In this document: piece after piece, positions 36,919 through 60,209 of the stretch
Layout: every line of letters starts with the position of its first letter
Numbering within the stretch: the stretch's first letter is position 1
NCBI GenBank assembly: GCA_002423185.1
Contig: DIUX01000001.1
Location: forward strand, 221,030-285,029
From: Micavibrio sp. UBA6147
GTDB lineage: Bacteria; Pseudomonadota; Alphaproteobacteria; Micavibrionales; UBA1664
Length of the DNA stretch: 64,000 bases
Direction: 5' to 3'
The notes under the pieces: model-generated
What the model saw: only the letters and a program-made list of their open reading frames with translations
Told to the model about the DNA's origin: nothing
Databases searched by the model: none
Made by a program: the position numbers and the translations under genes

Positions 36919-36928
36919 AGGACGACCC

Positions 36929-42421: not shown

Positions 42422-45382
42422 ATGAATACGCCTATAAACTGCTGTAAAACTTGCGTTATTACTTCTTTTAATTTTTTCATCTATAATCGTATTTATTCAC
42501 AGTTCACGCACGGAGCAAAAGAACTGCAAGTCGTTGTATGCTGGGTATTTCTTGCTTGTGTGTTGTGGGCGTGGGCGATTAGCCCCGCAAACGCGTCGTG
42601 CCCCGTGTCCGTCGCCGGTCAATATATCATGACTTATAATAACGGCACCAAATTTATGGCGGCGTGTAAATTCGGCGATTCTTTGCGCAATTTATGCGGC
42701 GTGACCGGAGCGGCCTGCACCGCGGGTCAAGAAGGCGACGTAGAGTATAACACGGCTGGCAACGTCCTGCGTTATTGCAACGCCAGCAACTGGATCAACG
42801 TCCAATGTGAATCGCTTGGCTCCTGCGCTGGTACAACGGCGGGCACGATTTCCGCCGATGCGACACAGATGAAATACTGCAACGGCACGACATGGCAAGC
42901 CATGTATAATGACGGGATATGCACCGGCATCGGCGTGCAAGAAGCCCTGTTTACCCCCAATGCCAGCACCGAAGGCGAAGACACGGTGCATTTCGGCGCG
43001 AGCCAAGGCATCACAATGACCGATGACTATATGGTGATTGGTGCTCACCGCGCGACACGTAATTCCATTCTTGATGGCGCGGCAACGGTCTATAAACGTT
43101 CCGGCGCGACATGGACGCGGCTCAAGGAGCTCGTCCCCAGCCCGATTGACACATTTGACTATTTTGGTCAAAGAGTGTCAATGGACGGCGATTACGTGAT
43201 TGTCGGCGCGGGCGGGCGCAGCACGGTTTATTTCTTTAAAAAGGACAGCGGCGGTGCCGATAACTGGGGGCAAATCGCGGTGCGCAGCGGCAATAGCTGG
43301 CACGGCGAAGCCGTTGATCTTGAGGGAGATCAAGCCATCGCCGGTGGCTATGCTCATAACGCGACCGTGGTTGACCAAGGACGCGCCCGCATTTACCGCA
43401 GGGATAGGGGCGGCGCCGATGCATGGGGTGAGGTCGTCATTCTCGACCACCCCGATGTTGATAAAGTCAATTATGACCGATTTGGTCGGGCTGTGGCGAT
43501 TGCGGCGGATGTTGCCGTCGTCGGCGCCTATGAACGCGATGAATCCGGCGTTGCCAATGCGGGGGCGGTCTATTTATACCGCGAAACGGCGCTCGACACA
43601 TGGTCGTATCACAAGAAACTTCTCAATCCCAACGGCCTAGGTGCAAGCGACCTTTTCGGCTATGCGCTCGATATCAAGGATCTCGACAATAACGGCACGG
43701 CGGACAGGCTGGTCGTCACCGCCTATGGAGATGATACGCAGGTCGGTGACCGCGGCACGATTTATATTTATGAACGCGACGAAGGCGGCGCCAATAATTG
43801 GGGACTCGTGGCACAAACATCGGATGCCACCGTGTCACCAACGTCGCGGCATGTCGGGTTTGATGTGACACTGGCGGGGGATTACATCATCTCTGGCTCA
43901 CGCCTCAATGACGAAAATGGCGTGGACGCAGGGGCTGGAATGATATTCCGCAAGGATGAAGGCGGTGCGAATAACTGGGGGCTGCAAACCTATGTCTGGG
44001 GTGGGGACACTGACACGCTCGACGAGCTTGGGCGCGGGGTTGCCGCATCCGAAACCGGAAACTACGCCGCCTTTGGTGCGATTTTTCGCCAGAATGCGGG
44101 CGCGCAGCCGGGCGCGGTTTATGCCTTCAGTCGTTCCGGTGCGACATGGACGCAACAACAAAAACTCACGCCCCCCGGAACCTATCAATACTCGGTGCGG
44201 ATGGGCGACTCCGTCGCGGTGTCCGGCGATTATGCGGCCGTCAGTATGATTTACCAGACCGACCGTTGGACGACTTTCCGCTCTGAACGCACTGGTGCGG
44301 TGAATATTTACCAACGTCAACCAAATGCCACATGGATTTTGGACAAACATCTTGTGCCGACATCGCCGCCGAGTGACATGCAATTCGGCGCGACATTGGA
44401 TGTTTCGCCCGAATATATGGTGGTCGGTGTTCCGCTGGACAACGGCCCGACCCGATCGGGCGGCGCGATTATCTTCGGGCGTAACGTCGGCGGCGCGGGC
44501 AATTGGGGCGAAATCAAAAAAATCAAACCATCCGACGCTGAATCTGAAGACAGGGCGGGGGAGTTTAATGGCCTTAGCTTGTTTGGCGATTACATCGTCC
44601 TCGGTGCATTTCGCGAAGACCGCGACCTCGTTTTTCCACAAATAGATGCCGGTGCGGCCTATATTTTCCACCGTAACCAAGGGGGCGCGGATAATTGGGG
44701 CGAGATTAAAAAAATTGTTTCAAGCGTCACCGAGAATAGCGCAAATTTCGGCAATGCCGTCGATATGGGCGGCACGACCTTGGCGGTGGGCGCACGGCTT
44801 GAGGACGCCAATGGCGGCAACTCCGGCGCGGTGTACCTGTTCGAACGCGACCAAGGCGGCTTGGATAATTGGGGGCAGGTCAAGCGTCTTGTCGGGGAAT
44901 CGGCGAATGATCAATATGGCTATGAAGTCGCGGTGTCTGGTGACACATTAGCGATTGGGGCGCCCTATGACGATGATGCCGGCACAAATACTGGTACGGT
45001 CTATATTTACTACCGTAATAATGGCGGTGCCAATAACTGGGGGCTGGAGAAAAAGCAGATCTACAGTGGCGCTGGCGCGGGCGATGCCGCCTTCGGCCAG
45101 TCCATTGACCTGTCGGGCGATATTTTGATTGTCGGCGCGCCGCTCGACGATACCAACCAGACAGATGGCGGCTATACCTATGTCTATTCCCGCAACGAAG
45201 GGGGCAACGACAATTGGGGCTTGCTCGCAACGATTGACCCCAATGTACCGGGGGAGGGCGATTATTTCGGGTTCAGTGTTGCCGTTTCCGGCAACGTGGT
45301 CGCCAGCAGCGGCCTATACAACGATGATTTCGGCGTTGATGACGGCTCGGTCTACCTTTTCGGCTGCCCTCCTGTACCATAG
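42422..45382 (+). CDS. Secreted Cys-rich-module + FG-GAP(FG-GAP_3-type) beta-propeller repeat protein, paralogue 1
   Basis: Signal peptide ending ANA|SCP. The ~150-aa module has 9 Cys (SCPVSVAGQYIMTYNNGTKFMAACKFGDSLRNLCG...RYCNASNWINVQC...KYCNGTTWQAMYNDGICTG). About 13 repeats follow of the form FG.SV...GDY...GA...D.GA.Y.F.R..GG..NWG, one with a DLDNNGTADRLVV Ca-loop-like motif. It ends GSVYLFGCPPVP. Confidence 0.9.
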   Translation: MNTPINCCKTCVITSFNFFIYNRIYSQFTHGAKELQVVVCWVFLACVLWAWAISPANASCPVSVAGQYIMTYNNGTKFMAACKFGDSLRNLCGVTGAACTAGQEGDVEYNTAGNVLRYCNASNWINVQCESLGSCAGTTAGTISADATQMKYCNGTTWQAMYNDGICTGIGVQEALFTPNASTEGEDTVHFGASQGITMTDDYMVIGAHRATRNSILDGAATVYKRSGATWTRLKELVPSPIDTFDYFGQRVSMDGDYVIVGAGGRSTVYFFKKDSGGADNWGQIAVRSGNSWHGEAVDLEGDQAIAGGYAHNATVVDQGRARIYRRDRGGADAWGEVVILDHPDVDKVNYDRFGRAVAIAADVAVVGAYERDESGVANAGAVYLYRETALDTWSYHKKLLNPNGLGASDLFGYALDIKDLDNNGTADRLVVTAYGDDTQVGDRGTIYIYERDEGGANNWGLVAQTSDATVSPTSRHVGFDVTLAGDYIISGSRLNDENGVDAGAGMIFRKDEGGANNWGLQTYVWGGDTDTLDELGRGVAASETGNYAAFGAIFRQNAGAQPGAVYAFSRSGATWTQQQKLTPPGTYQYSVRMGDSVAVSGDYAAVSMIYQTDRWTTFRSERTGAVNIYQRQPNATWILDKHLVPTSPPSDMQFGATLDVSPEYMVVGVPLDNGPTRSGGAIIFGRNVGGAGNWGEIKKIKPSDAESEDRAGEFNGLSLFGDYIVLGAFREDRDLVFPQIDAGAAYIFHRNQGGADNWGEIKKIVSSVTENSANFGNAVDMGGTTLAVGARLEDANGGNSGAVYLFERDQGGLDNWGQVKRLVGESANDQYGYEVAVSGDTLAIGAPYDDDAGTNTGTVYIYYRNNGGANNWGLEKKQIYSGAGAGDAAFGQSIDLSGDILIVGAPLDDTNQTDGGYTYVYSRNEGGNDNWGLLATIDPNVPGEGDYFGFSVAVSGNVVASSGLYNDDFGVDDGSVYLFGCPPVP

Positions 45383-45626
45383 GGAGGGGGACAGGCGAGG
45401 TGTATTCGGGTAATCAGCGGGATGAAGGACTGTATAGGCTCTTCTTAGCATTCGAGCGCTTTGCTTCGCGGCGTCTATTTTTTTCTCTAAAAAGTTGATT
45501 AATGATTTAGATCAGACACAGTCACTAATGGTTACTGTATCGCGCCCTGCAAAACTATATTTTTTCTAAAAAGATAAGCTGCCTTAGACGGTTTTTTATA
45601 AAAACACTATTTATTACAGTCGCTTA

Positions 45627-45651
45627 CAGATATGCAAAAAATGCATATCTG
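45627..45651. repeat. Perfect 10-bp inverted repeat in the AT-rich spacer upstream of leader B
   Basis: CAGATATGCA-aaaaa-TGCATATCTG. Confidence 0.7.
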
Positions 45652-45706
45652 CATCCTATGTGGGTGTGTTTACATTCTTTTGCAATCAAAAGTATACTTA
45701 AGAAAG

Positions 45707-45989
45707 GCTGTATCCTACGCAGTATGGCATACAGCTCTGGGTTTCACAACCTTATCATACCATAATATGCAGTCTGCACTGGTTGTATGATGCGCGCCTG
45801 TTTTATATGGACGCGCAAAATGGTTCTGCGTTTCGGTTTCTGGCCGAGTGACGGTTATGTTCAAAGCTCCGGTTTAAAGGCTGTCGAGTGTTTTCATGAC
45901 GGCGCAGTTGTGATTCCTAAATCGCCGGAAAGCCCCGCTGCTTCTGGGAACCCTAACGCATATCTTAAACAAAACGGAGAAAGTAAACA
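45707..45989 (+). promoter_or_regulatory. Conserved 5' leader, copy B (upstream of FG-GAP paralogue 2)
   Basis: Homologous to copies A and C. The hairpin GCTGTAT...ATACAGC corresponds to GCCGTA...TACGGC in copy A (compensatory changes). A GGAGA Shine-Dalgarno sequence lies 10 nt before the GTG of the main gene. Confidence 0.5.
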
Positions 45990-45993
45990 GTGA
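45787..45993 (+). CDS. Candidate small upstream ORF (68 aa) coupled to paralogue 2 by GTGA stop/start overlap
   Basis: MMRACFIWTRKMVLRFGFWPSDGYVQSSGLKAVECFHDGAVVIPKSPESPAASGNPNAYLKQNGESKQ. Against copy A, the DGYVQSSGLKAV and SPE blocks differ only at third codon positions, and one Arg/Lys codon is changed at all three positions (cgg vs aaa). The TGA at 45991-45993 overlaps the GTG at 45990. Confidence 0.45.
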   Translation: MMRACFIWTRKMVLRFGFWPSDGYVQSSGLKAVECFHDGAVVIPKSPESPAASGNPNAYLKQNGESKQ

Positions 45994-48053
45994 ACGTGTC
46001 CAATAAGAAAGCCCAAGAGTTGAGTATGACTATCATTTGCAACAATGTTTATTCTCGATCAAACAAGGGGGCTACAAAACAAAAGACGTTCCAAGGGTTC
46101 ACATCCATTGCTTTTTTCGCCTGCGTGTTTGTACTCATCATGATGGATACTGCAAGCGCGTCATGCCCAGTCTCTACCGCCGGACAATACATCCTGACCT
46201 ATAATAACGGCACGAAATTTATGGCCGCCTGTAAATATGGTGATTCCTTGCGCAATTTATGCGGCGTAACGGACGCGGCTTGCGCGGCAGGAGAAGAAGG
46301 TGACTTGGAATATAATACGGCGGGGAGTGTGCTGCGCTATTGCAACGGCACGAACTGGGTCAACGTGCAATGCGAAACGCTCACGTCCTGTGCCGGTACG
46401 ACGGCGGGCATGATTTCCGCCGATACGGAACGGATGAAGTACTGTAACGGTGCGACGTGGCAAGCCATGTATAATGACGGCATATGCGCCGGAATCGGTG
46501 TACAAGAGGCGATCTTAACCCCGAGCAACGCCACGGACGGCGATGACGCGCTTTATTTTACCTATATGAGCGGCCTTGCGATGACGGATGATTTCATGAT
46601 GGCGGGGGCGATTTATGCCGCACGTAACAAAACGCGCGATGGTGCAGTGACTGTGTATAAGCGCAGCGGCACAACATGGAACCGTGTCAAGGAACTTGTC
46701 CCCAGTGGTAGCGCAGCAAATCACTATTTCGGCGCCTCCATCGCTATGGACGGCGATTACGCAATCGTCGGAGCCTTTGGCGGAAGCCGTGTTCATTTCT
46801 TCAAAAAAGATCAAGGTGGCGCGGAAAATTGGGGCGAGCTGGTGATGCGCGCGGGGTCAGGCTACTCCGGTCTGTCTGTTGACCTTGATGGCGACAAGGC
46901 TATCGCGGGGGCGTATGGCGCCGATGGTGCAGCAGCGAATCAAGGCAATGCCCGTATTTACAGGCGCGATAAGGACGGCGCTGACGCTTGGGGGCAGGTT
47001 GTTATTCTCAATCACCCTGGTACGCCGCCGATCGCTAATGACAATATTGGGCGTTCCGCAGCGATATCGGGTGATATCGCTGCCGTTGGGAGCCATGTCG
47101 CGGATGAGCCGGGTTTCGTGGATACCGGTGTGGTCTGGCTCTACCAAGAAACATCTCAAGATAACTGGGCGTTGATCAAGAAACTCGTAAACCCCAACGG
47201 GGCGTCTGCGAGCAATTACTTCGGCTCTTCCGTGGACGTGAAGGATCTGGATGGTGACGGCACGGCTGATCGAGTTGTAATCGGAGCCTATGGTGACGAC
47301 ACCTATGGCAGCAATAAAGGCTCTTTGTTTGTGTATGAGCGCAATCAAGGCGGCGCCGATAATTGGGGGCAAATCAAGAAAGTCGTGCCAACGGTTGAGG
47401 AACACGGAGCCTATTTCGGCAGGTCTGTTGACCTTTCGGGGACAACGCTCGTGGCCGGCGCGGCGCGTGAAGATTCCAATGGTAACGATTCCGGTGCCGT
47501 ATATGTTTTCGAACGTGACCAAGGCGGCAGTGAGAATTGGGGGCAAGTCAAACGTATGACGGGCGAGAATGCCGGAGATCTTTACGGCTTCGAAGTTGCC
47601 ATTTCGGGGGATACGATGGTCATAGGGGCGCCTTATGAAGATACCGGCGGAACCAATCGCGGGGCTGTCTATGTCTATTACCGCGACAATGGTGGTGCGG
47701 GTAATTGGGGGCTGGAAAAGAAAATACCCTATGGTGGAGCCGGAGGTGCAGGAGATGCCTTTTTTGGCTGGGCGCTTGATTTATCGGGCGATATCTTGAT
47801 TGTCGGCGCACCGAATGACGACACCAATGCGAATAACAGCGGTTATACCTATGTCTATTCCCGCAACGAAGGCGGCAACGATAATTGGGGGCTTTTGGCG
47901 ACGATTGACCCGAATGTTCCGGGTGAGGGGGATTATTTCGGATACAGCGTTGCAGTGTCGGGAAATGTCGTTGCCGCAGGCGGCATTTATAATGATGATG
48001 CGGGCGTTGATGACGGTGCGGTATACGTGTTCGGCTGCCCGTCTGTGCCATAG
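45990..48053 (+). CDS. Secreted Cys-rich-module + FG-GAP beta-propeller repeat protein, paralogue 2 (short form, ~8 repeats)
   Basis: Same N-module (ASA|SCPVSTAGQYILTYNNGTKFMAACKYGDSLRNLCG...) and the same C-terminus (GAVYVFGCPSVP), but 687 aa. Relative to paralogue 3 it lacks about five central repeats. The GTG start is supported by homology of its Shine-Dalgarno context with copy A. Confidence 0.88.
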   Translation: MNVSNKKAQELSMTIICNNVYSRSNKGATKQKTFQGFTSIAFFACVFVLIMMDTASASCPVSTAGQYILTYNNGTKFMAACKYGDSLRNLCGVTDAACAAGEEGDLEYNTAGSVLRYCNGTNWVNVQCETLTSCAGTTAGMISADTERMKYCNGATWQAMYNDGICAGIGVQEAILTPSNATDGDDALYFTYMSGLAMTDDFMMAGAIYAARNKTRDGAVTVYKRSGTTWNRVKELVPSGSAANHYFGASIAMDGDYAIVGAFGGSRVHFFKKDQGGAENWGELVMRAGSGYSGLSVDLDGDKAIAGAYGADGAAANQGNARIYRRDKDGADAWGQVVILNHPGTPPIANDNIGRSAAISGDIAAVGSHVADEPGFVDTGVVWLYQETSQDNWALIKKLVNPNGASASNYFGSSVDVKDLDGDGTADRVVIGAYGDDTYGSNKGSLFVYERNQGGADNWGQIKKVVPTVEEHGAYFGRSVDLSGTTLVAGAAREDSNGNDSGAVYVFERDQGGSENWGQVKRMTGENAGDLYGFEVAISGDTMVIGAPYEDTGGTNRGAVYVYYRDNGGAGNWGLEKKIPYGGAGGAGDAFFGWALDLSGDILIVGAPNDDTNANNSGYTYVYSRNEGGNDNWGLLATIDPNVPGEGDYFGYSVAVSGNVVAAGGIYNDDAGVDDGAVYVFGCPSVP

Positions 48054-48164: not shown

Positions 48165-51017
48165 ATGAGGATAAGCGGAAAAATTTTCGCTGCTGTGGCT
48201 GTTGTCTTTTGTGCGCTTGTGCCGCTTCGCGCGGTGCAGGCAACTTGCCCTGTGTCCGTCGCCGGACAATATATCATGACCTATAATAACGGCACGAAAT
48301 TCATGGCAGCGTGCAAGTTTGGTGACTCGCTGCGTAATTTATGCGGCGACCCTGCGGGGGTGTGTACAGCCGGCCAAGAAGGGGATGTCGAATATAATAC
48401 AGGGGGCAGTGTCCTGCGTTATTGTAACGGCAGTAACTGGGTCAATGTTCAATGCCAATCGCTTGGTTCTTGCGTCGGAACGGCGGCGGGAACAATCTCC
48501 GCCGATGCCACACAAATGAAATACTGCAACGGCACAACATGGCAAGCCATGTATAATGACGGCATTTGTACGGGGATCGGGGTGCAAGAAGCCACATTTT
48601 CTCCGTCAAACGCAACGGATGGAGAGGACGCTGTCCAATTCACCCACCCTAACGGTCTTGCCATGACGGATGCGTACATGATGGCGGGGTCGATGCTTGG
48701 TTCGCGTAACCGTCTGCGTGACGGGGCTGTAACGGTCTATAAACGCAGCGGCACAACATGGACACGGCTCAAGGAACTTGTTCCCACAGGCAACGGTGTT
48801 GCCCATTATTTCGGCAATGCTGTCGCCATGGATGGCGATTATGCGATTGTCGGCGCCTATGGCGGAAGCCGCGTCCATTTTTTCAAAAAAGATCATGGAG
48901 GAGCCGATAACTGGGGCGAATTGGTAATGCGCGGCGGATCGACATATTCCGGCATTGCTGTCGATCTGGATGGGGATCAGGCTATTGCAGGCGCGCACGG
49001 CGCGGACGGCGCGGCGACGAACCAAGGCAATGCCCGTATTTATAGGCGGGACAGCGGCGGCGCCGATGCATGGGGGCAAGTTGTTATCCTCACGCACCCT
49101 GGCACGCCGGTCATCAGCGATAACCTTGGTAACTCGGTGGCGATTGCCGCCGACATGGCCGCAATAGGCGGGCCGAATGTGGATGATTCCGGCGTTGCGA
49201 ATACGGGGGTCATCTGGCTGTACCAAGAAACATCGCTTGATAACTGGGTGATGTTGAAGAAATTTACCAACCCGAATGGCTTGGGGTCGAGTGATTATTT
49301 CGGGTCGAGTGTTGATCTGAAAGACCTTGATAATGACGGCACGGCGGATCGCATGGTGATCGGCGCGTACGCAGATGATGAAGGCGGCAGCAATAAAGGC
49401 ACAGTGTTTGTGTATGAACGCAATCAAGGCGGCGCCAATAATTGGGGCTTGGTCAAGCAAATCGATGATACGGCTTCACCGGCTACCTCACAGTATTTGG
49501 GGTTTAGCACCGTCCTTGGGGGGGATCGTGTTATCTCGGGCATTATTTTGGACGATACGCAAGGCAGCAATGCCGGTGCTTCCGTCGTTTTCGGCAAAGA
49601 TGTGGGCGGTGCCAATAACTGGGGTGTTGAACAATTCCTGTATGGCAGTCTTTCAAGCGCCAACGACCAACAAGGCAGAGTCGTCGCAATGGACGAATCC
49701 GGCACTTACGCCACAATGGGGTCAATGTACGAAGGGGAAAGAGGGGCGGCCTATACATACAGCCGTTCAGGCAGCACATGGACTCAGCGCCAGCGCACGC
49801 AACCCCATTCAGGCATTGAGCATTCGGTCAGGATGGGGGATGCCGTCGCGGCCTCGGGCGATTATGCCGCCACAGGCATTATTTATAAAACCGATTACTG
49901 GGTGGCGAATAAATGGACAGTCGTCGGCGGAGTCGATATTTACAAGCGCGCGCCGGACGCAACATGGTCGCTCGATAAGCACGTTTTGCCGCCGTCCCCC
50001 GCAAACTCGATGCAGTTTGGGCAGACGCTAGATATTTCGCCGGAATATTTGGTTGTCGGCGTGCCGGGCGATGATACGGGCGGCGGCGATTCCGGCGGCG
50101 CAATGCTCTTTGGCCGAAACGTCGGCGGAGCAGGAAATTGGGGCTTCAGCAAGCTCATCAAGCACGATTATGCGGCGGGCAGCCAAGACGCCGGAGCGGA
50201 AAACGGGATTGCGTTGTTTGGCGAATATATCGTTCTCGGCGTTGGCGGCGATAACCGAAGCCTCGTCTATCCTCAAGGAAGTGCCGGATCCGTCGCCATT
50301 TTTAAAAAGGATCAAGGCGGCGCGGATAACTGGGGGCAAATCAAAAAAGTCGTCCCAACGGTTGAGGAGCATGCCGCCTATTTCGGGCGGTCGGTTGATC
50401 TTGCGGGAACCACGCTGGTTGCTGGAGCCGCACGCGAAAACGCGAATGGTACGGATGCTGGGGCGATTTATATTTATGAACGTGACCAAGGGGGCGCGGA
50501 TAATTGGGGTTTGATCAAGCGTATGACCGGTGAGTCCGCGAGCGATCATTACGGATGGGAAGTCGCAGTGTCGGGCGACACGATGGCGATTGGTGCCCCC
50601 TATGACGATGACGCCGGAACAGACCGCGGCGCGGTGTATATTTATTATCGCGATAATGGCGGTTCGGGCAATTGGGGTCTGGAAAAGAAGATGGTCTATG
50701 ACGGGGCAAGCAGCGGCAATGCTCTGTTTGGTCGGGCGCTGGACTTGTCGGGCGATATTTTGATCATTGGCGCGCCCTATGACGACACCAATGTGACGGA
50801 TGGCGGCTATACCTATGTCTATTCCCGCAACGAAGGCGGCAACGATAACTGGGGACTTTTGGCGACGATTGACCCGAATGTTCCGGGGGTAGAGGACTTG
50901 TTTGGCTTCAGTGTCGCCGTGTCGGGAAATGTCGTTGCCGCAGGCGGAATCTATAACGACGATGCGGGCGTTGATGATGGCGCTATTTATGTGTTCGGCT
51001 GTCCGCCTGTGCCGTAA
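48165..51017 (+). CDS. Secreted Cys-rich-module + FG-GAP beta-propeller repeat protein, paralogue 3
   Basis: Signal peptide MRISGKIFAAVAVVFCALVPLRAVQA|TCP; 9-Cys module; 13 recognisable repeats; no Cys in the repeat region; ends GAIYVFGCPPVP. Confidence 0.9.
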   Translation: MRISGKIFAAVAVVFCALVPLRAVQATCPVSVAGQYIMTYNNGTKFMAACKFGDSLRNLCGDPAGVCTAGQEGDVEYNTGGSVLRYCNGSNWVNVQCQSLGSCVGTAAGTISADATQMKYCNGTTWQAMYNDGICTGIGVQEATFSPSNATDGEDAVQFTHPNGLAMTDAYMMAGSMLGSRNRLRDGAVTVYKRSGTTWTRLKELVPTGNGVAHYFGNAVAMDGDYAIVGAYGGSRVHFFKKDHGGADNWGELVMRGGSTYSGIAVDLDGDQAIAGAHGADGAATNQGNARIYRRDSGGADAWGQVVILTHPGTPVISDNLGNSVAIAADMAAIGGPNVDDSGVANTGVIWLYQETSLDNWVMLKKFTNPNGLGSSDYFGSSVDLKDLDNDGTADRMVIGAYADDEGGSNKGTVFVYERNQGGANNWGLVKQIDDTASPATSQYLGFSTVLGGDRVISGIILDDTQGSNAGASVVFGKDVGGANNWGVEQFLYGSLSSANDQQGRVVAMDESGTYATMGSMYEGERGAAYTYSRSGSTWTQRQRTQPHSGIEHSVRMGDAVAASGDYAATGIIYKTDYWVANKWTVVGGVDIYKRAPDATWSLDKHVLPPSPANSMQFGQTLDISPEYLVVGVPGDDTGGGDSGGAMLFGRNVGGAGNWGFSKLIKHDYAAGSQDAGAENGIALFGEYIVLGVGGDNRSLVYPQGSAGSVAIFKKDQGGADNWGQIKKVVPTVEEHAAYFGRSVDLAGTTLVAGAARENANGTDAGAIYIYERDQGGADNWGLIKRMTGESASDHYGWEVAVSGDTMAIGAPYDDDAGTDRGAVYIYYRDNGGSGNWGLEKKMVYDGASSGNALFGRALDLSGDILIIGAPYDDTNVTDGGYTYVYSRNEGGNDNWGLLATIDPNVPGVEDLFGFSVAVSGNVVAAGGIYNDDAGVDDGAIYVFGCPPVP

Positions 51018-51125: not shown

Positions 51126-53999
51126 ATGAAGAAAATAGCTTGTCTGTTTTGGGCGCTCCTTGTTGTAATCCTGCCGTTTGAGGCGCGGGCAAGTTGTCCT
51201 GTGGCGGAGGCCGGACAATACATCATGACGTATAACAGCGGCACGAAATATATGTCGGCCTGTAAATTCGGCGATTCCTTGCGTAATTTATGCGGCAATG
51301 TCGGCGTGTCCTGCACGGCGGGGCAAGAAGGCGACGTTGAATACAGCGCCGCCGGAACGGTTTTGCGCTATTGCAACGGGAGTAACTGGATCAACGTCCA
51401 GTGCGAGGCGCTCGGATCCTGTGTCGGCACGGCGGCGGGGACGATTTCCGCCGACACGACGCAAATGAAATACTGCAACGGCACGACATGGCAAGCCATG
51501 TATAATGACGGAATATGCGTCGGTATCGGGGTGCAAGAAGCGGTCTTCACACCCACTGGCGCATCGCACGGTCAAAACACCATGTATTACGGGTGGGAAG
51601 ACCAAATCGCGATGACCGATGACTATGCCGCGGTCGGCTCGCAATTCGCCACGCGGGTCAGGCTTCGTGACGGCGCGGTGACGATGTATAAACGCACCGG
51701 CGCGGCATGGGCACGAATCAAGGAGCTTGTCCCCAGTGTGTATGGTGTGACTCATTATTTCGGCAATTCCGTGTCGATGGATGGCGATTACATTATGGTC
51801 GGGGCGTATAGCGCCAACCGCGCCTTCATTTTCAAAAAAGACCAAGGCGGCGCCGATAACTGGGGTGAGATTGCCGTGCGGTCGGGCAGTCAATATCACG
51901 GTTTCTCCGTCGATATCGAAGGTGACAAAGCCATAGCCGGAAGCCCCTATCACGGTACCGCAAGCTCGGGCTCTGGCTACCGCCAAGGCCGCGCCCGAAT
52001 TTATCGCAAGGATCGAAGCGGTGTCGATGCATGGGGCGAGGTTGTTATTTTGGAAAATCCTGAGGTTGCGCCGGTTGCGTCGGATCGTTTCGGTGACACG
52101 GTCGCCATCGCGGGCGATATTGCTGTGGTCGCCAGCCCCTATCAGAACGAGGGCGGTATCGGCGACGCTGGTGCGGTCTGGCTATACCGTGAAACGGCCT
52201 TGGACACATGGTCTTTGCTCAAGAAAATCACCAACCCCAACGGGCTGGGGTCGAGTGACCTTTTCGGCTATGCCGTCGACATCAAGGATAACGACGGCAA
52301 CGGCACCGCCGACCGTTTGGTTGTGTCGGCGCTGAGCGACGACGATTTCGGGAGCAATAAAGGTACGATCTTCGTTTTCGAGCGCGACCAAGGCGGCGCG
52401 AATAATTGGGGCTTGGTCACGCATACGGGTGACCGCACAAACGCAAATCCAACCACGGTGGAGATCGGCCGTGGTCTTAGCTTGACGACCAATAATAAAA
52501 TGATTGTTGGTGTCCGCGCCAATGACGACCAAGGCGTTGATGCCGGCGCGGCGATCATCTTCGGCAAGGATACGGGCGGCGCCAATAACTGGGGGATCGA
52601 AGAATATATCTATGCTGGTGACCCTGCGGTGCGCAATGAATTCGGGCGCGCCGTGGCGTTTTCGGAAACAGGCGCCTATGCCATGGCGTCCGCCCCGTTT
52701 GACATTACGAACGACCCCGTGGCCGGTGCCGCCTATATCTTCAGCCGTTCCGGCACGACCTCAACACAGCGCGCCAAACTTGCCCCCACATCCTCCATCG
52801 AATATTCGGTACGGATGGGCGACTCCGTGGCGGTGTCGGGCGACTATGCCGCTGTCGGCATCATCTATAAAACTGATTTGTGGAACACATTGCGCACCCG
52901 CGCCACAGGCGGTGTAAACATTTATAAACGCGCCGCGAATGCAACGTGGTCATTGGAAAAACACATCACGCCTGAAACCCCCTATGGGGACGGGCATTTC
53001 GGAATTACGGTTGACATCTCGCCCGAATTTTTGGCCGTCGCCGTGCCGGGGGATAACGCGGGTGCCAGCGATTCCGGCGCCATCATGCTCTACAGCCGCA
53101 ACCACGGCGGCGTCGGCAATTGGGGCGAGTTTAAAAAGCTCAAAGCCCTCGACCGACAAGCAAGCGATGTTATGGGCTCTGAAAATGGCCTCAGCCTGTT
53201 TGGTGACTACATTGTCGCAGGGGCGCTTGGCGATGACGGAACACTTGTTTCGCCGCAGGGTAACTCAGGATCTGCCTATATTTTCAACCGCAATCAAGGC
53301 GGTGCGGATAATTGGGGACAGGTCAAAAAGCTCATTCCGCCTGTTGACGAACATGAGGCTCGCTTCGGCAACGCCGTTGATATGGGGGGCAACATCATCG
53401 CCGTTGCCTCTCGGATTGAGGATGCAAACGGCGTAAACTCGGGCGCAGTCTATTTGTTTTCAAAGGATCAAGGCGGCACGAATAACTGGGGGCAAATCAA
53501 GAAATTTGTCGGTGAGGCCGCCAACGACCATTTCGGCTATGACGTGGCGGTGTCGGGCGACACGGTCGCGGTCGGCGCTCCGTATCAAGACGCTGCCGGA
53601 ACGGATCGTGGCGCCGTTTATCTCTATTACAAAGACCAAGGCGGCGCGGGCAATTGGGGCTTGTTCAAAAAACTCAATTACCCAGGGGTCAGCTCAGGCA
53701 ACGCCTTGTTCGGGTTCCAGATCGACCTCGCGGGCGATATTTTGATTGTCGGCGCGCCGTATGACGACACAAACTTGACCGATGCGGGCTATGTGTACGT
53801 GTTTTCGCGCAACGAGGGCGGTAACGATAATTGGGGGCAACTCGCCACCATCGTGCCGAACACCCCAGGCGAAACGGACTATTTCGGCTACAGCGTGTCC
53901 GTGTCCGGTAACGTCGTCGCAGGGGGCGGCTTGTATAACGATGATGGCGGCAAGGATGACGGGTCGGTGTATTTGTTCGGTTGTCCGCCGACGCCTTAG
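51126..53999 (+). CDS. Secreted Cys-rich-module + FG-GAP beta-propeller repeat protein, paralogue 4
   Basis: Signal peptide MKKIACLFWALLVVILPFEARA|SCP, with the same module and repeats. It ends GSVYLFGCPPTP. Confidence 0.9.
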   Translation: MKKIACLFWALLVVILPFEARASCPVAEAGQYIMTYNSGTKYMSACKFGDSLRNLCGNVGVSCTAGQEGDVEYSAAGTVLRYCNGSNWINVQCEALGSCVGTAAGTISADTTQMKYCNGTTWQAMYNDGICVGIGVQEAVFTPTGASHGQNTMYYGWEDQIAMTDDYAAVGSQFATRVRLRDGAVTMYKRTGAAWARIKELVPSVYGVTHYFGNSVSMDGDYIMVGAYSANRAFIFKKDQGGADNWGEIAVRSGSQYHGFSVDIEGDKAIAGSPYHGTASSGSGYRQGRARIYRKDRSGVDAWGEVVILENPEVAPVASDRFGDTVAIAGDIAVVASPYQNEGGIGDAGAVWLYRETALDTWSLLKKITNPNGLGSSDLFGYAVDIKDNDGNGTADRLVVSALSDDDFGSNKGTIFVFERDQGGANNWGLVTHTGDRTNANPTTVEIGRGLSLTTNNKMIVGVRANDDQGVDAGAAIIFGKDTGGANNWGIEEYIYAGDPAVRNEFGRAVAFSETGAYAMASAPFDITNDPVAGAAYIFSRSGTTSTQRAKLAPTSSIEYSVRMGDSVAVSGDYAAVGIIYKTDLWNTLRTRATGGVNIYKRAANATWSLEKHITPETPYGDGHFGITVDISPEFLAVAVPGDNAGASDSGAIMLYSRNHGGVGNWGEFKKLKALDRQASDVMGSENGLSLFGDYIVAGALGDDGTLVSPQGNSGSAYIFNRNQGGADNWGQVKKLIPPVDEHEARFGNAVDMGGNIIAVASRIEDANGVNSGAVYLFSKDQGGTNNWGQIKKFVGEAANDHFGYDVAVSGDTVAVGAPYQDAAGTDRGAVYLYYKDQGGAGNWGLFKKLNYPGVSSGNALFGFQIDLAGDILIVGAPYDDTNLTDAGYVYVFSRNEGGNDNWGQLATIVPNTPGETDYFGYSVSVSGNVVAGGGLYNDDGGKDDGSVYLFGCPPTP

Positions 54000-54325: not shown

Positions 54326-54329
54326 ATGA
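54216..54329 (+). CDS. Candidate small upstream ORF (33-38 aa) coupled to paralogue 5 by ATGA stop/start overlap
   Basis: MVGEAMAYVQPLVKAIATLHSMGFLTPRSPKGQGTAQ is in the same frame as, and shares the motif of, the copy A/B peptides (YVQ...KA(V/I)..(F/L)H.......(R/K)SP(E/K)). GGGGAGG lies just upstream of the second ATG (54231). The TGA at 54327-54329 overlaps the ATG at 54326. Confidence 0.4.
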   Translation: MVGEAMAYVQPLVKAIATLHSMGFLTPRSPKGQGTAQ

Positions 54330-57247
54330 AGATCTTCCAATCATCAGGTTTCAAAATACCGTTTTTCCTTCGTGTTCAACGTCGTTTTTCTGCTTTGCTT
54401 TGGGGGTTTGTTTTTGTGACTGTCCTGCTCGCGAGCCTGCCTCATGCGGCGTGGGCAAGCTGTCCTGTGTCCGTCGCGGGTCAATATATCATGACCTATA
54501 ACAACGGCACGAAATTCATGGCGGCGTGTAAATTCGGGGATTCCTTGCGCAATTTATGCGGCAATGTCGGCGTGTCCTGCACGGTGGGGCAAGAGGGCGA
54601 TGTTGAATACAACACGGCTGGTAACGTCCTTCGCTATTGTAACGGGAGCAACTGGGTCAATGTTCAGTGCGAGGCTCTGACGTCCTGTGTCGGCACGCCG
54701 GCGGGAACGATCTCCGCTGACGCCACGCAAATGAAATACTGCAACGGCACGACATGGCAAGCCATGTACAGTGACGGCATTTGCACGGGGATCGGGGTTC
54801 AAGAAGCCTTGTTCACCCCCACCGCGGGCACTCACGGTCAAAACGCAATGCAATATGCGATGGAACAACAAGTCGCCATCACCGACACCTATGCGATTGT
54901 CGGTGCGTCACAGGCCACGCGTAACGTGCTTATCGACGGGGCGGCGACCATCTATAAACGATCCGGCACAACATGGTCACGGATCAAGGAACTGGAGCCG
55001 AGCGTCACGGGAGTCTCCCATTATTTCGGTCAAGCTGTGGCGATTGACGGCGATTACGCCATGGTCGGTGCCTATAACAACAACCGAGTTTTTATATTCA
55101 AAAAAGACCAAGGCGGTGCCGATAATTGGGGACAAATCGCCACCCGTACCGGCGCGACCTATCACGGCGTGTCTGTCGACATCAACGGTGACAAGGCCAT
55201 CGGCGGCAGTCACGGTTACAGCGGCGCGGCGGTACGGCAAGGGCAGGCGAGAATATACCGCAAGGATCGAAGCGGAGCCGATGCGTGGGGCGAGGTCGTC
55301 ATCCTCAACCATCCCGAACCCGACCCCGTGAACTACGACTATTTCGGTCGTACCGTGGCTATTGCGGGGGATATTGCGGTGGTTGCGGGCGGATACCGGA
55401 CGGAAGCGGGAATTAGCAATGCAGGCGTTGTCTGGGTTTACCGCGAAACATCGGCGGATAATTGGTCTTTGCTGAAAAAAATCACCAACCCCAACGGCTT
55501 GGGTGCGAATGATTATTTCGGTTACAGCGTCGATGTACAGGATAACGACTCCAACGGCACAGGCGACCGGATTGCTGTCGGCGCTTTTGGAGATGATAAT
55601 TTCGGTGGCGATAAAGGCACGATATTTATTTTCGAGCGTGACCAAGGCGGTGCGAATAACTGGGGGCTGGTGACACAGACTGCCGACACAACGATTTCCG
55701 TATCATCCTTTCATCAAGGCCGCGAAATCGCGCTGGCGAACGACCGTTTGATATCAGGTACGCGTTTGAACGACGATCAAGGCACGGATGCCGGAGCGGC
55801 AATCATTTTCGGCAAAGATAATGGCGGCGCCAATAATTGGGGCGTCGAACAATATGTATACGCCTCCGACGGATCGGATCGCGATGAACTTGGTCGCTCT
55901 GTCGGCCTGTCGAAAACGGGAACCTATGCCATTGCCGGCGCACCCTATGCGGTGAACAGTGCCACCAATGTCGGTGCGGCCTATATCTATGCTCGCTCCG
56001 GCACAACATGGACTCAGCAATCCAAACAAACCCCGCATTCCTCCGTTGAATATTCGGTGCGGATGGGGGATTCCGTCGTGGTGTCGGGGGACTATGCGGC
56101 GGTCGGCATGGCCTTGAAGACAGATTTTTGGAACAGCAACCGAATCTATCGCACCGGCGGCGTGAACATATACCAGCGCCAACCCAATTCCACTTGGATC
56201 TTGGAAAAACACGTCGTGCCGACAGCGCCGGTCAACGACATGCAATTCGGTCAGACGCTTGCTATCTCGCCCGAAATATTGGTTGTGGCAACACCAGGGG
56301 ATAACAGCAGCGCGGGCAATTCCGGGGCAGCGCTTTTGCATGGGCGTAATGAAGGCGGCGCGGGGAATTGGGGGCTGATTAAAAAAGTCAAACACGGCGA
56401 CCCGCAAGGTAACGACTATGCCGGAAATGAAAACGGCTTGGCTTTATTCGGTGATTATCTGGTGCTTGGTGTGTCGCGCAAAAATTTGAATCTGGTTGTT
56501 CCGCAAGGCTCTGCGGGCGCGGCCTATATCTTCAAACGCAATCAAGGCGGCGCCGATAATTGGGGACAAATCAAAAAACTTGTCGCTCCGGTCGAAGAAA
56601 ACGGCGCCTATTTCGGTAACGCCGTGAGTATGGGCGGCACAACCCTCGCGGTCGGGGCGCGGATCGAGGATTCCAACGGCACGAACTCAGGTTCAGTTTA
56701 TCTCTATTCCCGCGACCAAGGCGGCGTGGATAATTGGGGGCAAATCAAAAAACTTACGGGTGAGAACGTCGGTGACCAATTCGGCTATGACGTTGCCGTG
56801 TCGGGCAGTACGATGGCGATCGGCGCACCCTATGACGATGATGCCGGCACCGACACAGGCACGGTTTACATTCACTACGAAAACCAAGGCGGCGCGGGCA
56901 ATTGGGGACAATTTAAGAAGATCGTCTATAACGGCGGCGGCGTGGGCAACGCCTTGTTCGGCTTTAACATTGACTTGTCGGGCGATATTTTGATTGTCGG
57001 TGCGCCCTATGATGACCGCAACGTCGAAAACGGCGGCTATGTCTACGTCTATTCCCGCAACGAAGGCGGCGATGATAACTGGGGCTTGCTCGCCACCATC
57101 GACCCCGATGTACCGGGGCTAGGCGACTTGTTCGGGTGGAGCGTGGCGGTGTCGGGCAACGTGGTTGCGGGGGCTGGGCTTTACAATGACGACTACGGCA
57201 AGGATGACGGATCGGTGTATTTGTTCGGCTGTCCACCAACGCCGTAA
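54326..57247 (+). CDS. Secreted Cys-rich-module + FG-GAP beta-propeller repeat protein, paralogue 5
   Basis: Signal peptide ending AWA|SCP. The N-module is almost identical to that of paralogue 6. It ends GSVYLFGCPPTP. Confidence 0.9.
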   Translation: MKIFQSSGFKIPFFLRVQRRFSALLWGFVFVTVLLASLPHAAWASCPVSVAGQYIMTYNNGTKFMAACKFGDSLRNLCGNVGVSCTVGQEGDVEYNTAGNVLRYCNGSNWVNVQCEALTSCVGTPAGTISADATQMKYCNGTTWQAMYSDGICTGIGVQEALFTPTAGTHGQNAMQYAMEQQVAITDTYAIVGASQATRNVLIDGAATIYKRSGTTWSRIKELEPSVTGVSHYFGQAVAIDGDYAMVGAYNNNRVFIFKKDQGGADNWGQIATRTGATYHGVSVDINGDKAIGGSHGYSGAAVRQGQARIYRKDRSGADAWGEVVILNHPEPDPVNYDYFGRTVAIAGDIAVVAGGYRTEAGISNAGVVWVYRETSADNWSLLKKITNPNGLGANDYFGYSVDVQDNDSNGTGDRIAVGAFGDDNFGGDKGTIFIFERDQGGANNWGLVTQTADTTISVSSFHQGREIALANDRLISGTRLNDDQGTDAGAAIIFGKDNGGANNWGVEQYVYASDGSDRDELGRSVGLSKTGTYAIAGAPYAVNSATNVGAAYIYARSGTTWTQQSKQTPHSSVEYSVRMGDSVVVSGDYAAVGMALKTDFWNSNRIYRTGGVNIYQRQPNSTWILEKHVVPTAPVNDMQFGQTLAISPEILVVATPGDNSSAGNSGAALLHGRNEGGAGNWGLIKKVKHGDPQGNDYAGNENGLALFGDYLVLGVSRKNLNLVVPQGSAGAAYIFKRNQGGADNWGQIKKLVAPVEENGAYFGNAVSMGGTTLAVGARIEDSNGTNSGSVYLYSRDQGGVDNWGQIKKLTGENVGDQFGYDVAVSGSTMAIGAPYDDDAGTDTGTVYIHYENQGGAGNWGQFKKIVYNGGGVGNALFGFNIDLSGDILIVGAPYDDRNVENGGYVYVYSRNEGGDDNWGLLATIDPDVPGLGDLFGWSVAVSGNVVAGAGLYNDDYGKDDGSVYLFGCPPTP

Positions 57248-57311
57248 AGAACAAAGCCATAAAAATACGTTTTAGGGTTGATCGAGCCATTTTTTCTATT
57301 AAAATGGTATA

Positions 57312-60209
57312 ATGACATTATTACCCGATCACATTTTTATGACAGGTATCATTAAAAAGTTATCTGTCTTGTCGCTGGCAATACTGTGTTTCCTGTCTTT
57401 TTCTTATTCTAAGTCTTGGGCAAGTTGCCCCGTGTCCGTTGCTGGTCAATATATCATGACCTATAATAACGGCACGAAATTCATGGCGGCTTGCAAATTC
57501 GGGGATTCCTTGCGTAATTTATGCGGCAATGTCGGCGTGTCCTGCACCGCGGGGCAAGAAGGCGATGTTGAATACAACACTGCGGGCAACGTCCTTCGTT
57601 ATTGTAACGGGAGCAACTGGGTCAATGTTCAGTGCGAGGCTCTGACGTCCTGTGTCGGCACACCGGCGGGGACGATCTCCGCTGACGCCACGCAAATGAA
57701 ATACTGCAACGGCACGACATGGCAAGCCATGTACAGTGACGGCATTTGCACCGGAATCGGGGTGCAAGAAGCCCTGTTCACCCCCACCGCGGCCACCCAT
57801 GGTCAAAACGCGATGTATTACGGCTTTGAACAACAATCCGCCATCACCGACACTTATGCGATTGTTGGTGCGCCACGCGCTACGCGTAACCGTCTTTTTG
57901 ATGGGGCGGCGACCATCTATAAGCGCTCCGGCGCGTCGTGGACGCGGCTAAAGGAAGTGGAACCGAGCGTTACCGGCACATCCCATTATTTCGGCCAATC
58001 CGTGGCGATTGACGGCGATTACACCATCGTCGGCGCCTATAACGCCAACCGGATTGCCATTTTCAAAAAAGACCAAGGCGGCGCGGATAATTGGGGGCAG
58101 GTCGCAACCAGAACAGGCTCAGACAATCACGGTATTTCCGTCGATATTTCCGGCGACAAGGCTATCGCGGGTTCCAACGCACACAACGCCGCCGTTATTA
58201 ACCAAGGCAACGCCAGAATATACCGCAGGGATAGCGGCGGTGCGGATAGCTGGGGGCAAGTCGTGATCTTGAACCACCCTGACGCCACCCCTGTCACGAG
58301 CGACCAGTTTGGTCGTGCCGTGGCGATTGCGGGGGACATCGCGGTGGTTGCGGGTGGATACCGTACGGAGGCGGGCGTATCCAACGCAGGGGCGGTCTGG
58401 TTGTTTCACGAAACATCGGCGGATAATTGGGTTTTTCTGAAAAAACTGACCAATCCCAACGGGCTTGGTGCGAGTGATTATTTCGGATTCAGTGTCGATA
58501 TTCAGGATAATGACGGCAACGGAACGGCGGACAGACTGGCTGTCGGCGCATTGGGGGATGACGAATATGGCTCTAACCGTGGCGGCGTTTTTATTTTTGA
58601 ACGCAACCAAGGCGGCGCGGATAATTGGGGGTTTGTGACGCAGGCCGTTGATACGAGCATCGCTTCCGCAACCGATCAAGGGCGTGAAGTCACCCTTGCC
58701 GCAGATCGAGTGATTACGGGGTCGCGGATCAGCGACGAAGAGGCGTATGACGCGGGCGCGGCTTTTGTGTTCCAAAAAGATGCCGGCGGTGCAAATAATT
58801 GGGGATTGGAACAATATCTCCATGCCTCGGATGCGTCTGAACGCAACGAATTTGGCCGTTCGGTCGGCATATCCAAAACGGGAACATACGCCATAGCGGG
58901 CGCACCCTATACGGAGAACAGCGCTACCAATGTCGGCGCGGCCTATATCTTCAGCCGCTCCGGCACGACATGGACAGAGCGTTCAAAGCAAATCCCGCAT
59001 TCCTCCGTCGAATATTCGGTGCGGATGGGGGATTCCGTCGTGGTGTCGGGCGATTATGCGGCAGTCGGTATGGCATGGAAAACGGATTTCTTTAATTCGA
59101 ACAGGATTTCGCGCACCGGCGGTGTGAACATATACCAACGCCAACCTAATTCCACATGGGTCTTGGAAAAACACGTCGTGCCGACATCGCCGGTCAACGA
59201 CATGCAATTCGGTCAGACCCTCGCCATCTCACCTGAAATATTGGTTGTGGCAACACCGGGGGACAATACCGGTGCCGGCAACTCAGGCGCGGCCTTGTTG
59301 CATGGGCGTAACCAAGGCGGGGCGGGCAATTGGGGATTGATTAAAAAAGTCAAACACGGCGACCCGCAATCCAGTGACTATGCCACTAATGAAAACGGCT
59401 TGGCTTTATTCGGCGATTATCTGGTGATTGGCGCATCGCGTAAGAATTTGAACTTGGTTTCTCCGCAAGGCTCGGCCGGTGCGGCCTATATCTTCAAGCG
59501 CAACCAAGGTGGCGCGGATAATTGGGGTCAGATCAAGAAGCTTGTTGCGCCGGTCGAAGAAAACGGCGCCTATTTCGGGAATTCTGTGAGCATGGGCGGT
59601 ACAACCCTAGCGGTCGGAGCGCGACTCGAGGATTCCAACGGCACGAATTCAGGCTCGGTCTACCTCTATTCCCGCGACCAAGGCGGCGCGGAAAACTGGG
59701 GTCAGATTAAGAAATTCACGGGCGAGAGCGCAAGCGACCATTTCGGTTATGATGTCGCAGTATCGGGCAACACCCTCGCCATCGGCGCCCCCTATGATGA
59801 CGATGCCGGCGGCGATGCGGGCGCGGTTTATATTCACTACGAAGACCAAGGCGGCGCGGGCAATTGGGGACAATTCAAGAAGATCGTCTATAACGGTGGC
59901 GGCGTAGGCAACGCCTTGTTCGGCTTTAATATTGACTTGTCGGGCGATATTTTGATTGTCGGTGCGCCCTATGACGACCGTAATGTGACGAATGGCGGCT
60001 ATGTCTATGTCTATTCCCGCAATGAAGGCGGCGACGATAATTGGGGCTTGCTCGCCACCATCGACCCCGATGTGCCGGGCGAGGAAGACTTGTTCGGCTA
60101 CAGCGTTGCGGTGTCCGGCAACGTCGTCGCGGGGGCGGGGCTGTATAATGACGATTACGGCAAGGACGATGGATCGGTCTATCTGTTCGGTTGCCCCCCA
60201 ACCCCTTAG
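57312..60209 (+). CDS. Secreted Cys-rich-module + FG-GAP beta-propeller repeat protein, paralogue 6
   Basis: Signal peptide ending SWA|SCP. It shares long blocks with paralogue 5. It ends GSVYLFGCPPTP, followed by a triplicated stop-containing 12-mer. Confidence 0.9.
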   Translation: MTLLPDHIFMTGIIKKLSVLSLAILCFLSFSYSKSWASCPVSVAGQYIMTYNNGTKFMAACKFGDSLRNLCGNVGVSCTAGQEGDVEYNTAGNVLRYCNGSNWVNVQCEALTSCVGTPAGTISADATQMKYCNGTTWQAMYSDGICTGIGVQEALFTPTAATHGQNAMYYGFEQQSAITDTYAIVGAPRATRNRLFDGAATIYKRSGASWTRLKEVEPSVTGTSHYFGQSVAIDGDYTIVGAYNANRIAIFKKDQGGADNWGQVATRTGSDNHGISVDISGDKAIAGSNAHNAAVINQGNARIYRRDSGGADSWGQVVILNHPDATPVTSDQFGRAVAIAGDIAVVAGGYRTEAGVSNAGAVWLFHETSADNWVFLKKLTNPNGLGASDYFGFSVDIQDNDGNGTADRLAVGALGDDEYGSNRGGVFIFERNQGGADNWGFVTQAVDTSIASATDQGREVTLAADRVITGSRISDEEAYDAGAAFVFQKDAGGANNWGLEQYLHASDASERNEFGRSVGISKTGTYAIAGAPYTENSATNVGAAYIFSRSGTTWTERSKQIPHSSVEYSVRMGDSVVVSGDYAAVGMAWKTDFFNSNRISRTGGVNIYQRQPNSTWVLEKHVVPTSPVNDMQFGQTLAISPEILVVATPGDNTGAGNSGAALLHGRNQGGAGNWGLIKKVKHGDPQSSDYATNENGLALFGDYLVIGASRKNLNLVSPQGSAGAAYIFKRNQGGADNWGQIKKLVAPVEENGAYFGNSVSMGGTTLAVGARLEDSNGTNSGSVYLYSRDQGGAENWGQIKKFTGESASDHFGYDVAVSGNTLAIGAPYDDDAGGDAGAVYIHYEDQGGAGNWGQFKKIVYNGGGVGNALFGFNIDLSGDILIVGAPYDDRNVTNGGYVYVYSRNEGGDDNWGLLATIDPDVPGEEDLFGYSVAVSGNVVAGAGLYNDDYGKDDGSVYLFGCPPTP

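Follow-up and report, generated by a model that had tools for sequence, protein, structure and literature searches.

Six tandem paralogues joining a three-repeat Cys module to FG-GAP_2 propeller blades in a Micavibrio contig

The window analyzed here is a stretch of 64,000 nucleotides from the uncultured Micavibrio sp. UBA6147 (contig DIUX01000001.1), and all coordinates of the array and its surroundings are positions in this stretch. The sample behind the contig is JGI metagenome 3300001605, taken from surface water of the Syncrude Mildred Lake tailings pond (PMC5029510). A sequence-only reading of the window had pointed to six co-directional genes for large secreted paralogues, and all six open reading frames (ORFs) were found at the proposed coordinates on the + strand, where they form an array spanning positions 42422-60209. 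The six proteins share 60-82% pairwise identity and the spacers between successive paralogues measure 607, 111, 108, 326 and 64 bp. Each of the proteins consists of a Sec-type signal peptide, a Cys-repeat module, a linker, a series of FG-GAP_2 blades and a Cys close to the C-terminus. The genes and their parts are as follows (lengths in amino acids, aa).

42422-45382, + strand: paralogue 1, 986 aa as an ORF; signal peptide 42422-42595 (start probably farther downstream); Cys-repeat module 42596-42922; linker TGIGVQEALFTP 42923-42958; 14 FG-GAP_2 blades 42959-45379; Ca-type loop DLDNNGTAD 43679-43705; C-terminal Cys 45365-45367
45990-48053, + strand: paralogue 2 (short form), 687 aa; module 46161-46487; linker 46488-46523; 9 blades 46524-48050; Ca-type loop DLDGDGTAD 47244-47270; C-terminal Cys 48036-48038
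48165-51017, + strand: paralogue 3, 950 aa; signal peptide 48165-48242; module 48243-48569; linker 48570-48605; 14 blades 48606-51014; Ca-type loop 49323-49349; C-terminal Cys 51000-51002
51126-53999, + strand: paralogue 4, 957 aa; signal peptide 51126-51191; module 51192-51518; linker 51519-51554; 14 blades 51555-53996; Ca-type loop 52287-52313; C-terminal Cys 53982-53984
54326-57247, + strand: paralogue 5, 973 aa; signal peptide 54326-54457; module 54458-54784; linker 54785-54820; 14 blades 54821-57244; Ca-type loop 55541-55567; C-terminal Cys 57230-57232
57312-60209, + strand: paralogue 6, 965 aa; likely true start M10 at 57339; module 57423-57749; linker 57750-57785; 14 blades 57786-60206; Ca-type loop 58506-58532; C-terminal Cys 60192-60194

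For paralogues 1, 2, 5 and 6, the start as annotated is probably placed too far upstream. The public gene call of paralogue 6 is a protein of 956 aa starting at M10, which gives a signal peptide of normal length, and the public call of paralogue 3 (913 aa) starts at an internal Met and thereby loses the signal peptide together with the first conserved Cys.

All six proteins match the Pfam family FG-GAP_2 (PF14312) in 6-10 stretches per protein with scores of 235-315 bits (E 1e-71 to 5e-96; gathering threshold 23 bits). Matches to PF14312 had been expected from the sequence alone, although under the name FG-GAP_3, which is not the Pfam name of this family. NCBIfam contributed no addition to the annotation of the propeller region. 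A repeat hidden Markov model (HMM) built from the window counts fourteen blades in paralogues 1, 3, 4, 5 and 6 and nine in paralogue 2, numbers that replace the 8-13 repeats proposed earlier. The blades are predicted to be four-stranded, with a size of about 55 aa, and most of them carry a GGxxNWG turn. Blade 14 always lacks a fourth strand and stops with the third (GSVYLFG-C-P-P-x-P). Paralogue 2 has blade 5 joined in register to blade 10, with FVYE followed directly by RNQGGADNWG, which amounts to an exact in-frame loss of five blades.

Blade 5 of each protein contains the sequence D-x-D-x-(D/N)-G-T-(A/G)-D in the hairpin between strands 1 and 2, and this motif occurs once per protein as had been noticed before. 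The classical FG-GAP model PF01839 detects the loop blade in paralogue 2 (E 1.5e-5). An integrin-type Ca-binding loop motif is thus present in the array, and the loop may bind Ca. Matches of CofB_pilin_dom over the same loop reached 17-21 bits against a cut-off of 27 and were taken as noise.

The AlphaFold model of paralogue 1 shows regular quartets of strands, with a predicted local distance difference test (pLDDT) score mostly of 70-90 in the blades. Foldseek aligned this model to the propellers of integrin alpha headpieces over about 470 columns (E ~1e-12; template modelling (TM) score to target 0.43-0.58) and to double-propeller proteins (Utp, DDB1 and IFT-A subunits) over about 920-950 columns. 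Together with the PF14312 scores, these matches support the earlier assignment of the repeats to beta-propellers, and we read the fourteen blades as probably forming two 7-bladed propellers of the integrin alpha type.

The likeness to integrin alpha propellers lies in the blades of about 55 aa, predicted to be four-stranded, and in a single DxDxDGxxD-type loop in the strand 1-2 hairpin. The window proteins differ from them in having fourteen or nine blades instead of seven, in having one Ca-type loop, and in lacking thigh and calf domains as well as a transmembrane segment, as the chain ends four residues past the last blade. Further additions are the unrelated Cys module at the N-terminus and the Cys at the C-terminus, and no gene resembling an integrin beta subunit was found in the window.

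The whole 14-blade unit (about 80% of the query) has counterparts of 28-35% identity in other phyla, including Bacteroidota, Chloroflexota and others, where it occurs in hundreds of proteins. These homologues are joined to the type IX secretion system (T9SS) tail PF18962, DUF11, HYR, CarboxypepD_reg or GEVED, and they differ from the window proteins in these other sorting or surface domains and in having no N-terminal Cys module. The recurrence of the unit across phyla with such partners suggests that the 14-blade double unit is old and typically occurs in surface or secreted proteins. Literature searches found neither a tested function for the 14-blade proteins nor a functional study of PF14312 proteins. 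The propeller region is ordinary, being another member of the poorly studied FG-GAP_2 kind, and the array offers a clear example both of the conserved 14-blade unit and of a viable 9-blade derivative.

At the N-terminus, the signal peptides end with ANA, ASA, VQA, ARA, AWA or SWA directly before the (S/T)CP of the mature chain, as the AxA-type cleavage site proposed from the sequence alone would have it. A lipoprotein reading of the N-terminal Cys was considered and rejected. The residues before this Cys are N-A-S, S-A-S, Q-A-T, R-A-S, W-A-S and W-A-S, so that position -3 is polar or charged and no lipobox is formed, whereas A-x-A fits signal peptidase I with the Cys at +2. Other members of the module family have D or V immediately before the Cys, which also speaks against a lipobox. 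No C-terminal sorting signal (T9SS tail, PEP-CTERM, LPXTG or similar) was detected by Pfam or NCBIfam.

Strand 3 of blade 14 is directly followed by the motif G-C-P-(P/S)-x-P, with which the chain ends. The Cys of this motif, four residues before the C-terminus, is the tenth in every mature paralogue and follows nine in the module, and therefore each mature protein has an even number of Cys. This 9+1 pattern is invariant in about 20 family members down to 37% identity, in which the Cys total is always even (10 or 12) and additional Cys come in pairs. Absent from the sequence-only reading were this tenth Cys, which probably ties the C-terminus to the module, the blade numbers of fourteen and nine, the third repeat of the module and the large family to which the module belongs.

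Beginning with the second residue of the mature chain, the module was found to be about 110 aa long, shorter than the 150 aa first estimated. Its nine Cys are invariant in the six paralogues at mature positions 2, 24, 34, 41, 61, 71, 77, 95 and 109, and the nine conserved Cys described earlier therefore stand. The duplicated YCNG(S/T)xW motif is likewise real; the module is, however, not a double but a triple repeat, composed of three tandem repeats of about 36 aa of which the first is degenerate. The HMM of a single repeat has the consensus CSGGTAGTIRYNSGSNVLQYCNGTNWVSMG, corresponding to the pattern C-x-G-x-x-A-G-x-h-x-Y-x(5-7)-h-x-[YF]-C-[ND]-G-T-x-W, and in each of the six paralogues it picks up the second and the third repeat. 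Over its full length the window module could be aligned with 52 canonical modules, and in this alignment its first 33 residues or so (CPVSVAGQYIMTYNNGTKFMAACKFGDSL) correspond to the degenerate repeat 1. The canonical Cys at positions 2, 24, 41, 61, 77 and 95 are conserved at 90% or more, while those at 34, 71 and 109 are lineage-specific extras.

With this alignment, AlphaFold predicted with confidence an all-beta module (pLDDT 87.9; predicted TM score (pTM) 0.78) with about four short strands per repeat. Foldseek found no significant neighbour of the model, the best matches having E 1.4 in the PDB and 0.06 in BFVD. Searches with the single sequence against Pfam (E up to 10), NCBIfam and the PDB sequences were negative, and a profile search of PDB sequences returned only chance matches. 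The earlier reading had not recognized the N-terminal module as a named domain, and this was upheld.

Three candidate relationships were tried and rejected. The Cys repeat is not a degenerate FG-GAP blade (hhalign probability 1.4%). A beta-trefoil or ricin-B (QxW)3 fold had no Pfam match, with trefoils appearing only at Foldseek E > 2 and TM < 0.2. Choline-binding or DUF2510 hairpin repeats had no match in the window proteins, with C-LytA appearing only at Foldseek E 5; one canonical family member scored 21.6 bits with DUF2510, under the cut-off of 24. The choline-binding repeats, the beta-trefoil (QxW)3 and the three S-layer homology (SLH) repeats resemble the module only by analogy, as short terminal repeats on varied secreted proteins, and none of them matches it in sequence or fold. 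A literature search on the motif strings of the module, and on DUF1566 with Bdellovibrio, found nothing relevant. We regard the module as moderately novel, since it is a widespread domain lacking a counterpart in Pfam, NCBIfam or the PDB, and its definition would improve the annotation of hundreds of surface proteins now called hypothetical.

An exhaustive HMMER search of 1.84 billion representatives with the module profile found 476 proteins at E <= 0.001, so that the family comprises at least 476 clusters at 50% identity. Coverage of the entire module is limited to three of them (P0001, which is identical to paralogue 2, P0002 and P0003) and the remaining ones match just the part holding the duplicated motif. 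The module alone had no matches in a word-indexed database of 5.8 billion entries. Among the matches listed, 127 of about 155 proteins contain exactly three repeats, and in 126 of the listed proteins the first repeat directly follows the signal peptide, as AxA and then x-Cys. Judged from these alignments, the window module is a divergent member of a large uncurated family with three repeats. It shares with other members (P0010, P0012, P0088 and the Bdellovibrio locus L007) the three repeats with [YF]C[ND]GTxW, the six canonical Cys, the start at residue 2 and the pairing with a large binding-type domain, which may be a 7-blade FG-GAP_2 propeller. It differs from them in the degenerate repeat 1 (W replaced by L, motif CKFGDSL), in the extra Cys 34, 71 and 109 with the C-terminal Cys, and in the doubled propeller.

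Partner domains were scanned in 88 family members. Laminin_G_3 was found to be the most common (30 of the 88), followed by Lcl_C/DUF1566 (11), Laminin_G_2 (9), Toxin_R_bind_N (6), the LVIVD propeller, Mtd_N and DUF1554 (4 each), FG-GAP_2, the N-terminal lectin domain of sialidase and Pentaxin (3 each) and Fibrinogen_C (2). As assigned by these domain matches, the partners are mostly lectin-like or receptor-binding heads. If it is true that the module anchors or docks, this would explain how these bacteria display lectin-like heads.

The three repeats are not contiguous in 49 of the 127 three-copy proteins, where large inserted domains split them as 1+2, 2+1 or 1+1+1, and the last repeat of such split modules usually ends at the final residue. 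In P0088, a 7-blade FG-GAP_2 propeller is inserted between repeats 1 and 2. In the complete genome of Bdellovibrio sp. HCB-162 (NZ_CP178861.1; L007, 6020-10216), a protein of 1399 aa has thirteen LVIVD repeats between repeat 1 and repeats 2-3, the latter ending at the C-terminus, and a second module-bearing ORF follows it. This protein clearly illustrates how an entire double propeller can split the module. Split modules whose last repeat lies at the chain end suggest that the three repeats assemble as one unit joining the ends of the chain. Single-propeller relatives with a contiguous module (P0147, P0146 and P0063) end after strand 3 of the last blade.

A first scan of genomes with module patterns found nothing, and a second one, with a broader alignment and two short patterns, found eight loci in Bdellovibrio and Bdellovibrionales, a Gracilibacteria metagenome-assembled genome (MAG), Nitrospiraceae, Pseudomonadaceae and Alphaproteobacteria MAGs. 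A scan of metagenomes with the module gave two distant matches only. Module-bearing genes stand in tandem at L003, L004 and L007, the hosts of the first two being a Pseudomonadaceae MAG and a Nitrospiraceae MAG. L003 (6928-11152) and L004 (7058-10774) each have three to four adjacent Cys-repeat ORFs, some with DUF1554 or Lcl_C heads, and these adjacent ORFs indicate that tandem clusters of module genes are common.

A broader proposal can be put forward tentatively, and we hold it as rather less probable than not. The module repeats might constitute a new domain family, perhaps with a new fold as well, in the form of a disulfide-bonded clasp in three pieces that reassembles despite inserted domains such as LamG or propellers of seven or thirteen blades. 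It might serve, in Bdellovibrionota, Alphaproteobacteria, Nitrospirota, candidate phyla and others, as a shared docking or anchoring hub that fixes varied receptor-binding heads to the envelope or to one common partner, with the window family adding a disulfide that ties the C-terminus of the fourteen blades to the hub.

The synonymous divergence (dS) of most paralogue pairs is above 1 and therefore saturated. Exceptions were observed for the pair 5-6 (0.31-0.96) and for the module of the pairs 4-5 and 4-6 (0.74-0.79). The saturated dS shows that the copies are old and that the likeness of their modules results from purifying selection and not from recent gene conversion. All six copies are under purifying selection, with the module as the most conserved part and blades 1-10 as the least conserved:

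Module: omega 0.01-0.15, amino-acid identity 74-99%
Blades 1-5: omega 0.06-0.24, amino-acid identity 54-74%
Blades 5-10: omega 0.12-0.25, amino-acid identity 51-60% for most pairs
Blades 10-14: omega 0.06-0.14, amino-acid identity 65-92%

Within a blade, the positions of the structural consensus are conserved, and variation is greatest in the 2-3 loop, strand 4 and the 4-1 loop. Paralogue 2 shows an omega of 0.08-0.10 against paralogue 3, and this constraint indicates that the 9-blade form is functional. In the pair 5-6, the module has a dS of 0.31 compared with 0.8-0.96 in the rest of the gene, and one local conversion in the module of this pair is possible. No pseudogene remnants or extra copies were observed in the spacers or elsewhere in the window.

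The sequence-only reading had called for a survey of array size in relatives, and copy number was found to vary (1, 2, 3 and 6). One relative has a single copy at L013 with a second on the same contig (P0174). Another, on a 2.2-Mb contig (L016, ENA ERZ15185039, 4146-12838), has three tandem copies of 949, 951 and 945 aa that adjoin groES/groEL near dnaA; this array of its own indicates that tandem expansion occurred more than once in the family. Single copies were also found on conjugative or mobile elements (L002, 8073-13715, and L017, 4217-15516; family members P0166 and P0164). There the gene sits between a small Lcl_C/DUF1566-like ORF and an ORF of about 246 aa of the prepilin type (N_methyl), with resolvase, ArdC, TraG/VirD4, MobA/MobL and ParA/ParB nearby, and the three genes may constitute a mobile adhesion cassette. 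No neighbouring gene is common to these contexts, and the protein therefore appears to act alone, using general export.

With moderate confidence, we interpret the array as a lineage-specific six-copy tandem expansion of one gene for a Sec-exported, disulfide-rich protein, the products being extracellular or envelope-exposed ligand-binding proteins with a shared base and divergent binding surfaces. The functional part of this interpretation draws on the partners of the module, the surface-type partners of the 14-blade homologues and the gradient of conservation. The three-repeat module would be the common base on which diverse lectin-like or adhesion-type heads are carried, and in the window proteins the head would consist of two 7-bladed propellers formed by the fourteen FG-GAP_2 blades, with the one Ca-type loop in blade 5. 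The conserved module and blades 11-14 would make up the shared base, whereas the divergent blades 1-10 would give each paralogue a different binding surface. The segment following Cys109, G-I-G-V-[QL]-E-A, is invariant across the family, and the AlphaFold model of paralogue 1 places the GIGVQEA region (residues 171-175) in a strand, at low confidence (segment pLDDT < 50). As the last blade ends at strand 3, the linker after the module might supply strand 4 of blade 14 in a velcro closure. A disulfide between Cys109 and the C-terminal Cys would then replace the missing 3-4 loop and staple the closure, and Cys34 and Cys71, which stand at equivalent linker positions, would be expected to pair with each other.

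Four observations weigh against this interpretation. The full-length model of paralogue 1, built from six sequences, is weak (mean pLDDT 68, pTM 0.48), and the 9-blade paralogue 2, clearly under purifying selection, misfits a strict 7+7 architecture. Omega is well under 1 overall, with no sign of positive diversifying selection. Finally, neither an outer-membrane translocation signal nor a dedicated secretion system adjoins the array, which leaves room for a periplasmic location. The earlier suggestion of a diversified set of binding proteins with a separate anchoring or lectin-like module is accordingly kept in part. It fits the high conservation of the module, the low conservation of blades 1-10 and the lectin-like heads found elsewhere, but the set is not rapidly evolving (omega 0.04-0.25).

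Beta-propellers with Ca sites act as polysaccharide lyases in other families, and the propellers could thus be enzymes, such as Ca-dependent polysaccharide lyases or hydrolases, with the array as a set of substrate specificities. An alpha-amylase gene 3 kb upstream (37748-39421) and the strong conservation of GGxxNWG on one face of most blades are in line with this. We nevertheless consider such a role fairly unlikely, as no enzyme family was matched in Pfam or NCBIfam, conservation falls on the residues of the structural FG-GAP_2 consensus, the heads that the module carries elsewhere are lectin-like and non-catalytic, and housekeeping genes (cinA-like, map and radC) lie between the amylase and the array. 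It is unlikely, to a slightly greater degree, that the proteins never leave the cell and are periplasmic or envelope-structural proteins, scaffolds or chaperone-like propellers such as TolB and BamB, with the module as a periplasmic docking domain. Six divergent copies would be odd for a housekeeping role in the envelope, copy number varies among relatives with some copies on conjugative elements, and the 14-blade homologues in Bacteroidota bear T9SS secretion tails; on the other side, the signal is of the Sec type only with no secretion system nearby, and five disulfides would suit oxidative folding in the periplasm.

The occurrence of the module family in Bdellovibrio, other Bdellovibrionales genomes and a Gracilibacteria MAG, and its fusion to receptor-binding types of heads including Mtd_N and Toxin_R_bind_N, would agree with proteins that a predatory or epibiotic bacterium uses in contact or attack to recognize prey or host cells. 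This is quite unlikely in our view, since nothing in the window points to predation and the eight loci also include Nitrospiraceae, Pseudomonadaceae and Alphaproteobacteria MAGs; being eight loci obtained with two short patterns, the list of taxa is not a fair sample of the family. Most improbable are cassettes for antigenic or phase variation, in which one expressed copy would exchange segments with silent donors by gene conversion. Tandem co-directional paralogues with highly similar ends could be read in this way, and the lower dS in the module of the pair 5-6 could be accounted for by one local conversion. Each of the six ORFs is, however, complete with its own signal peptide and start context, the spacers showed neither invertible nor repeat elements, and dS is saturated for nearly all pairs with the module included, which effectively excludes the gene-conversion model.

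Besides the coding regions, the sequences preceding the first two paralogues are related:

42140-42421, + strand: leader of paralogue 1, about 280 nt, about 70% identical to the leader of paralogue 2
45710-45989, + strand: leader of paralogue 2, homologous to 42140-42421

This identity persists though the synonymous sites of the genes are saturated, which suggests that the leaders are possibly a conserved promoter or 5' leader (5' untranslated region). RNAalifold on the two sequences predicted 53 pairs, six of them with compensatory changes. Rfam gave only a sub-threshold match to sRNA-Xcc1 on the leaders (23.9 against 53 bits), and the element was not found upstream of paralogues 3-6 nor in the related loci. 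Promoter and terminator scans across the array gave the same counts as in shuffled sequences and were uninformative.

The array is flanked by housekeeping genes, with a cinA-like gene, a methionine aminopeptidase gene (map) and radC upstream, and a nucleoside deoxyribosyltransferase, a DUF6782 protein and gltX downstream. The alpha-amylase-family enzyme (557 aa) lies beyond the cinA-like, map and radC genes, and a protein with a C-terminal peptidase-inhibitor I78 domain is encoded at 36806-37636, also upstream of these genes. Farther away, a toxin-antitoxin pair consisting of DarT (PF14487, E 2e-24) and a DarG-like macro-domain protein (PF01661) occupies 29644-31572, directly after a tRNA-Met gene. 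The GC content falls to 0.425 with strong GC skew at 30-32 kb, and the DarT/DarG-like stretch looks like a small tRNA-associated island.

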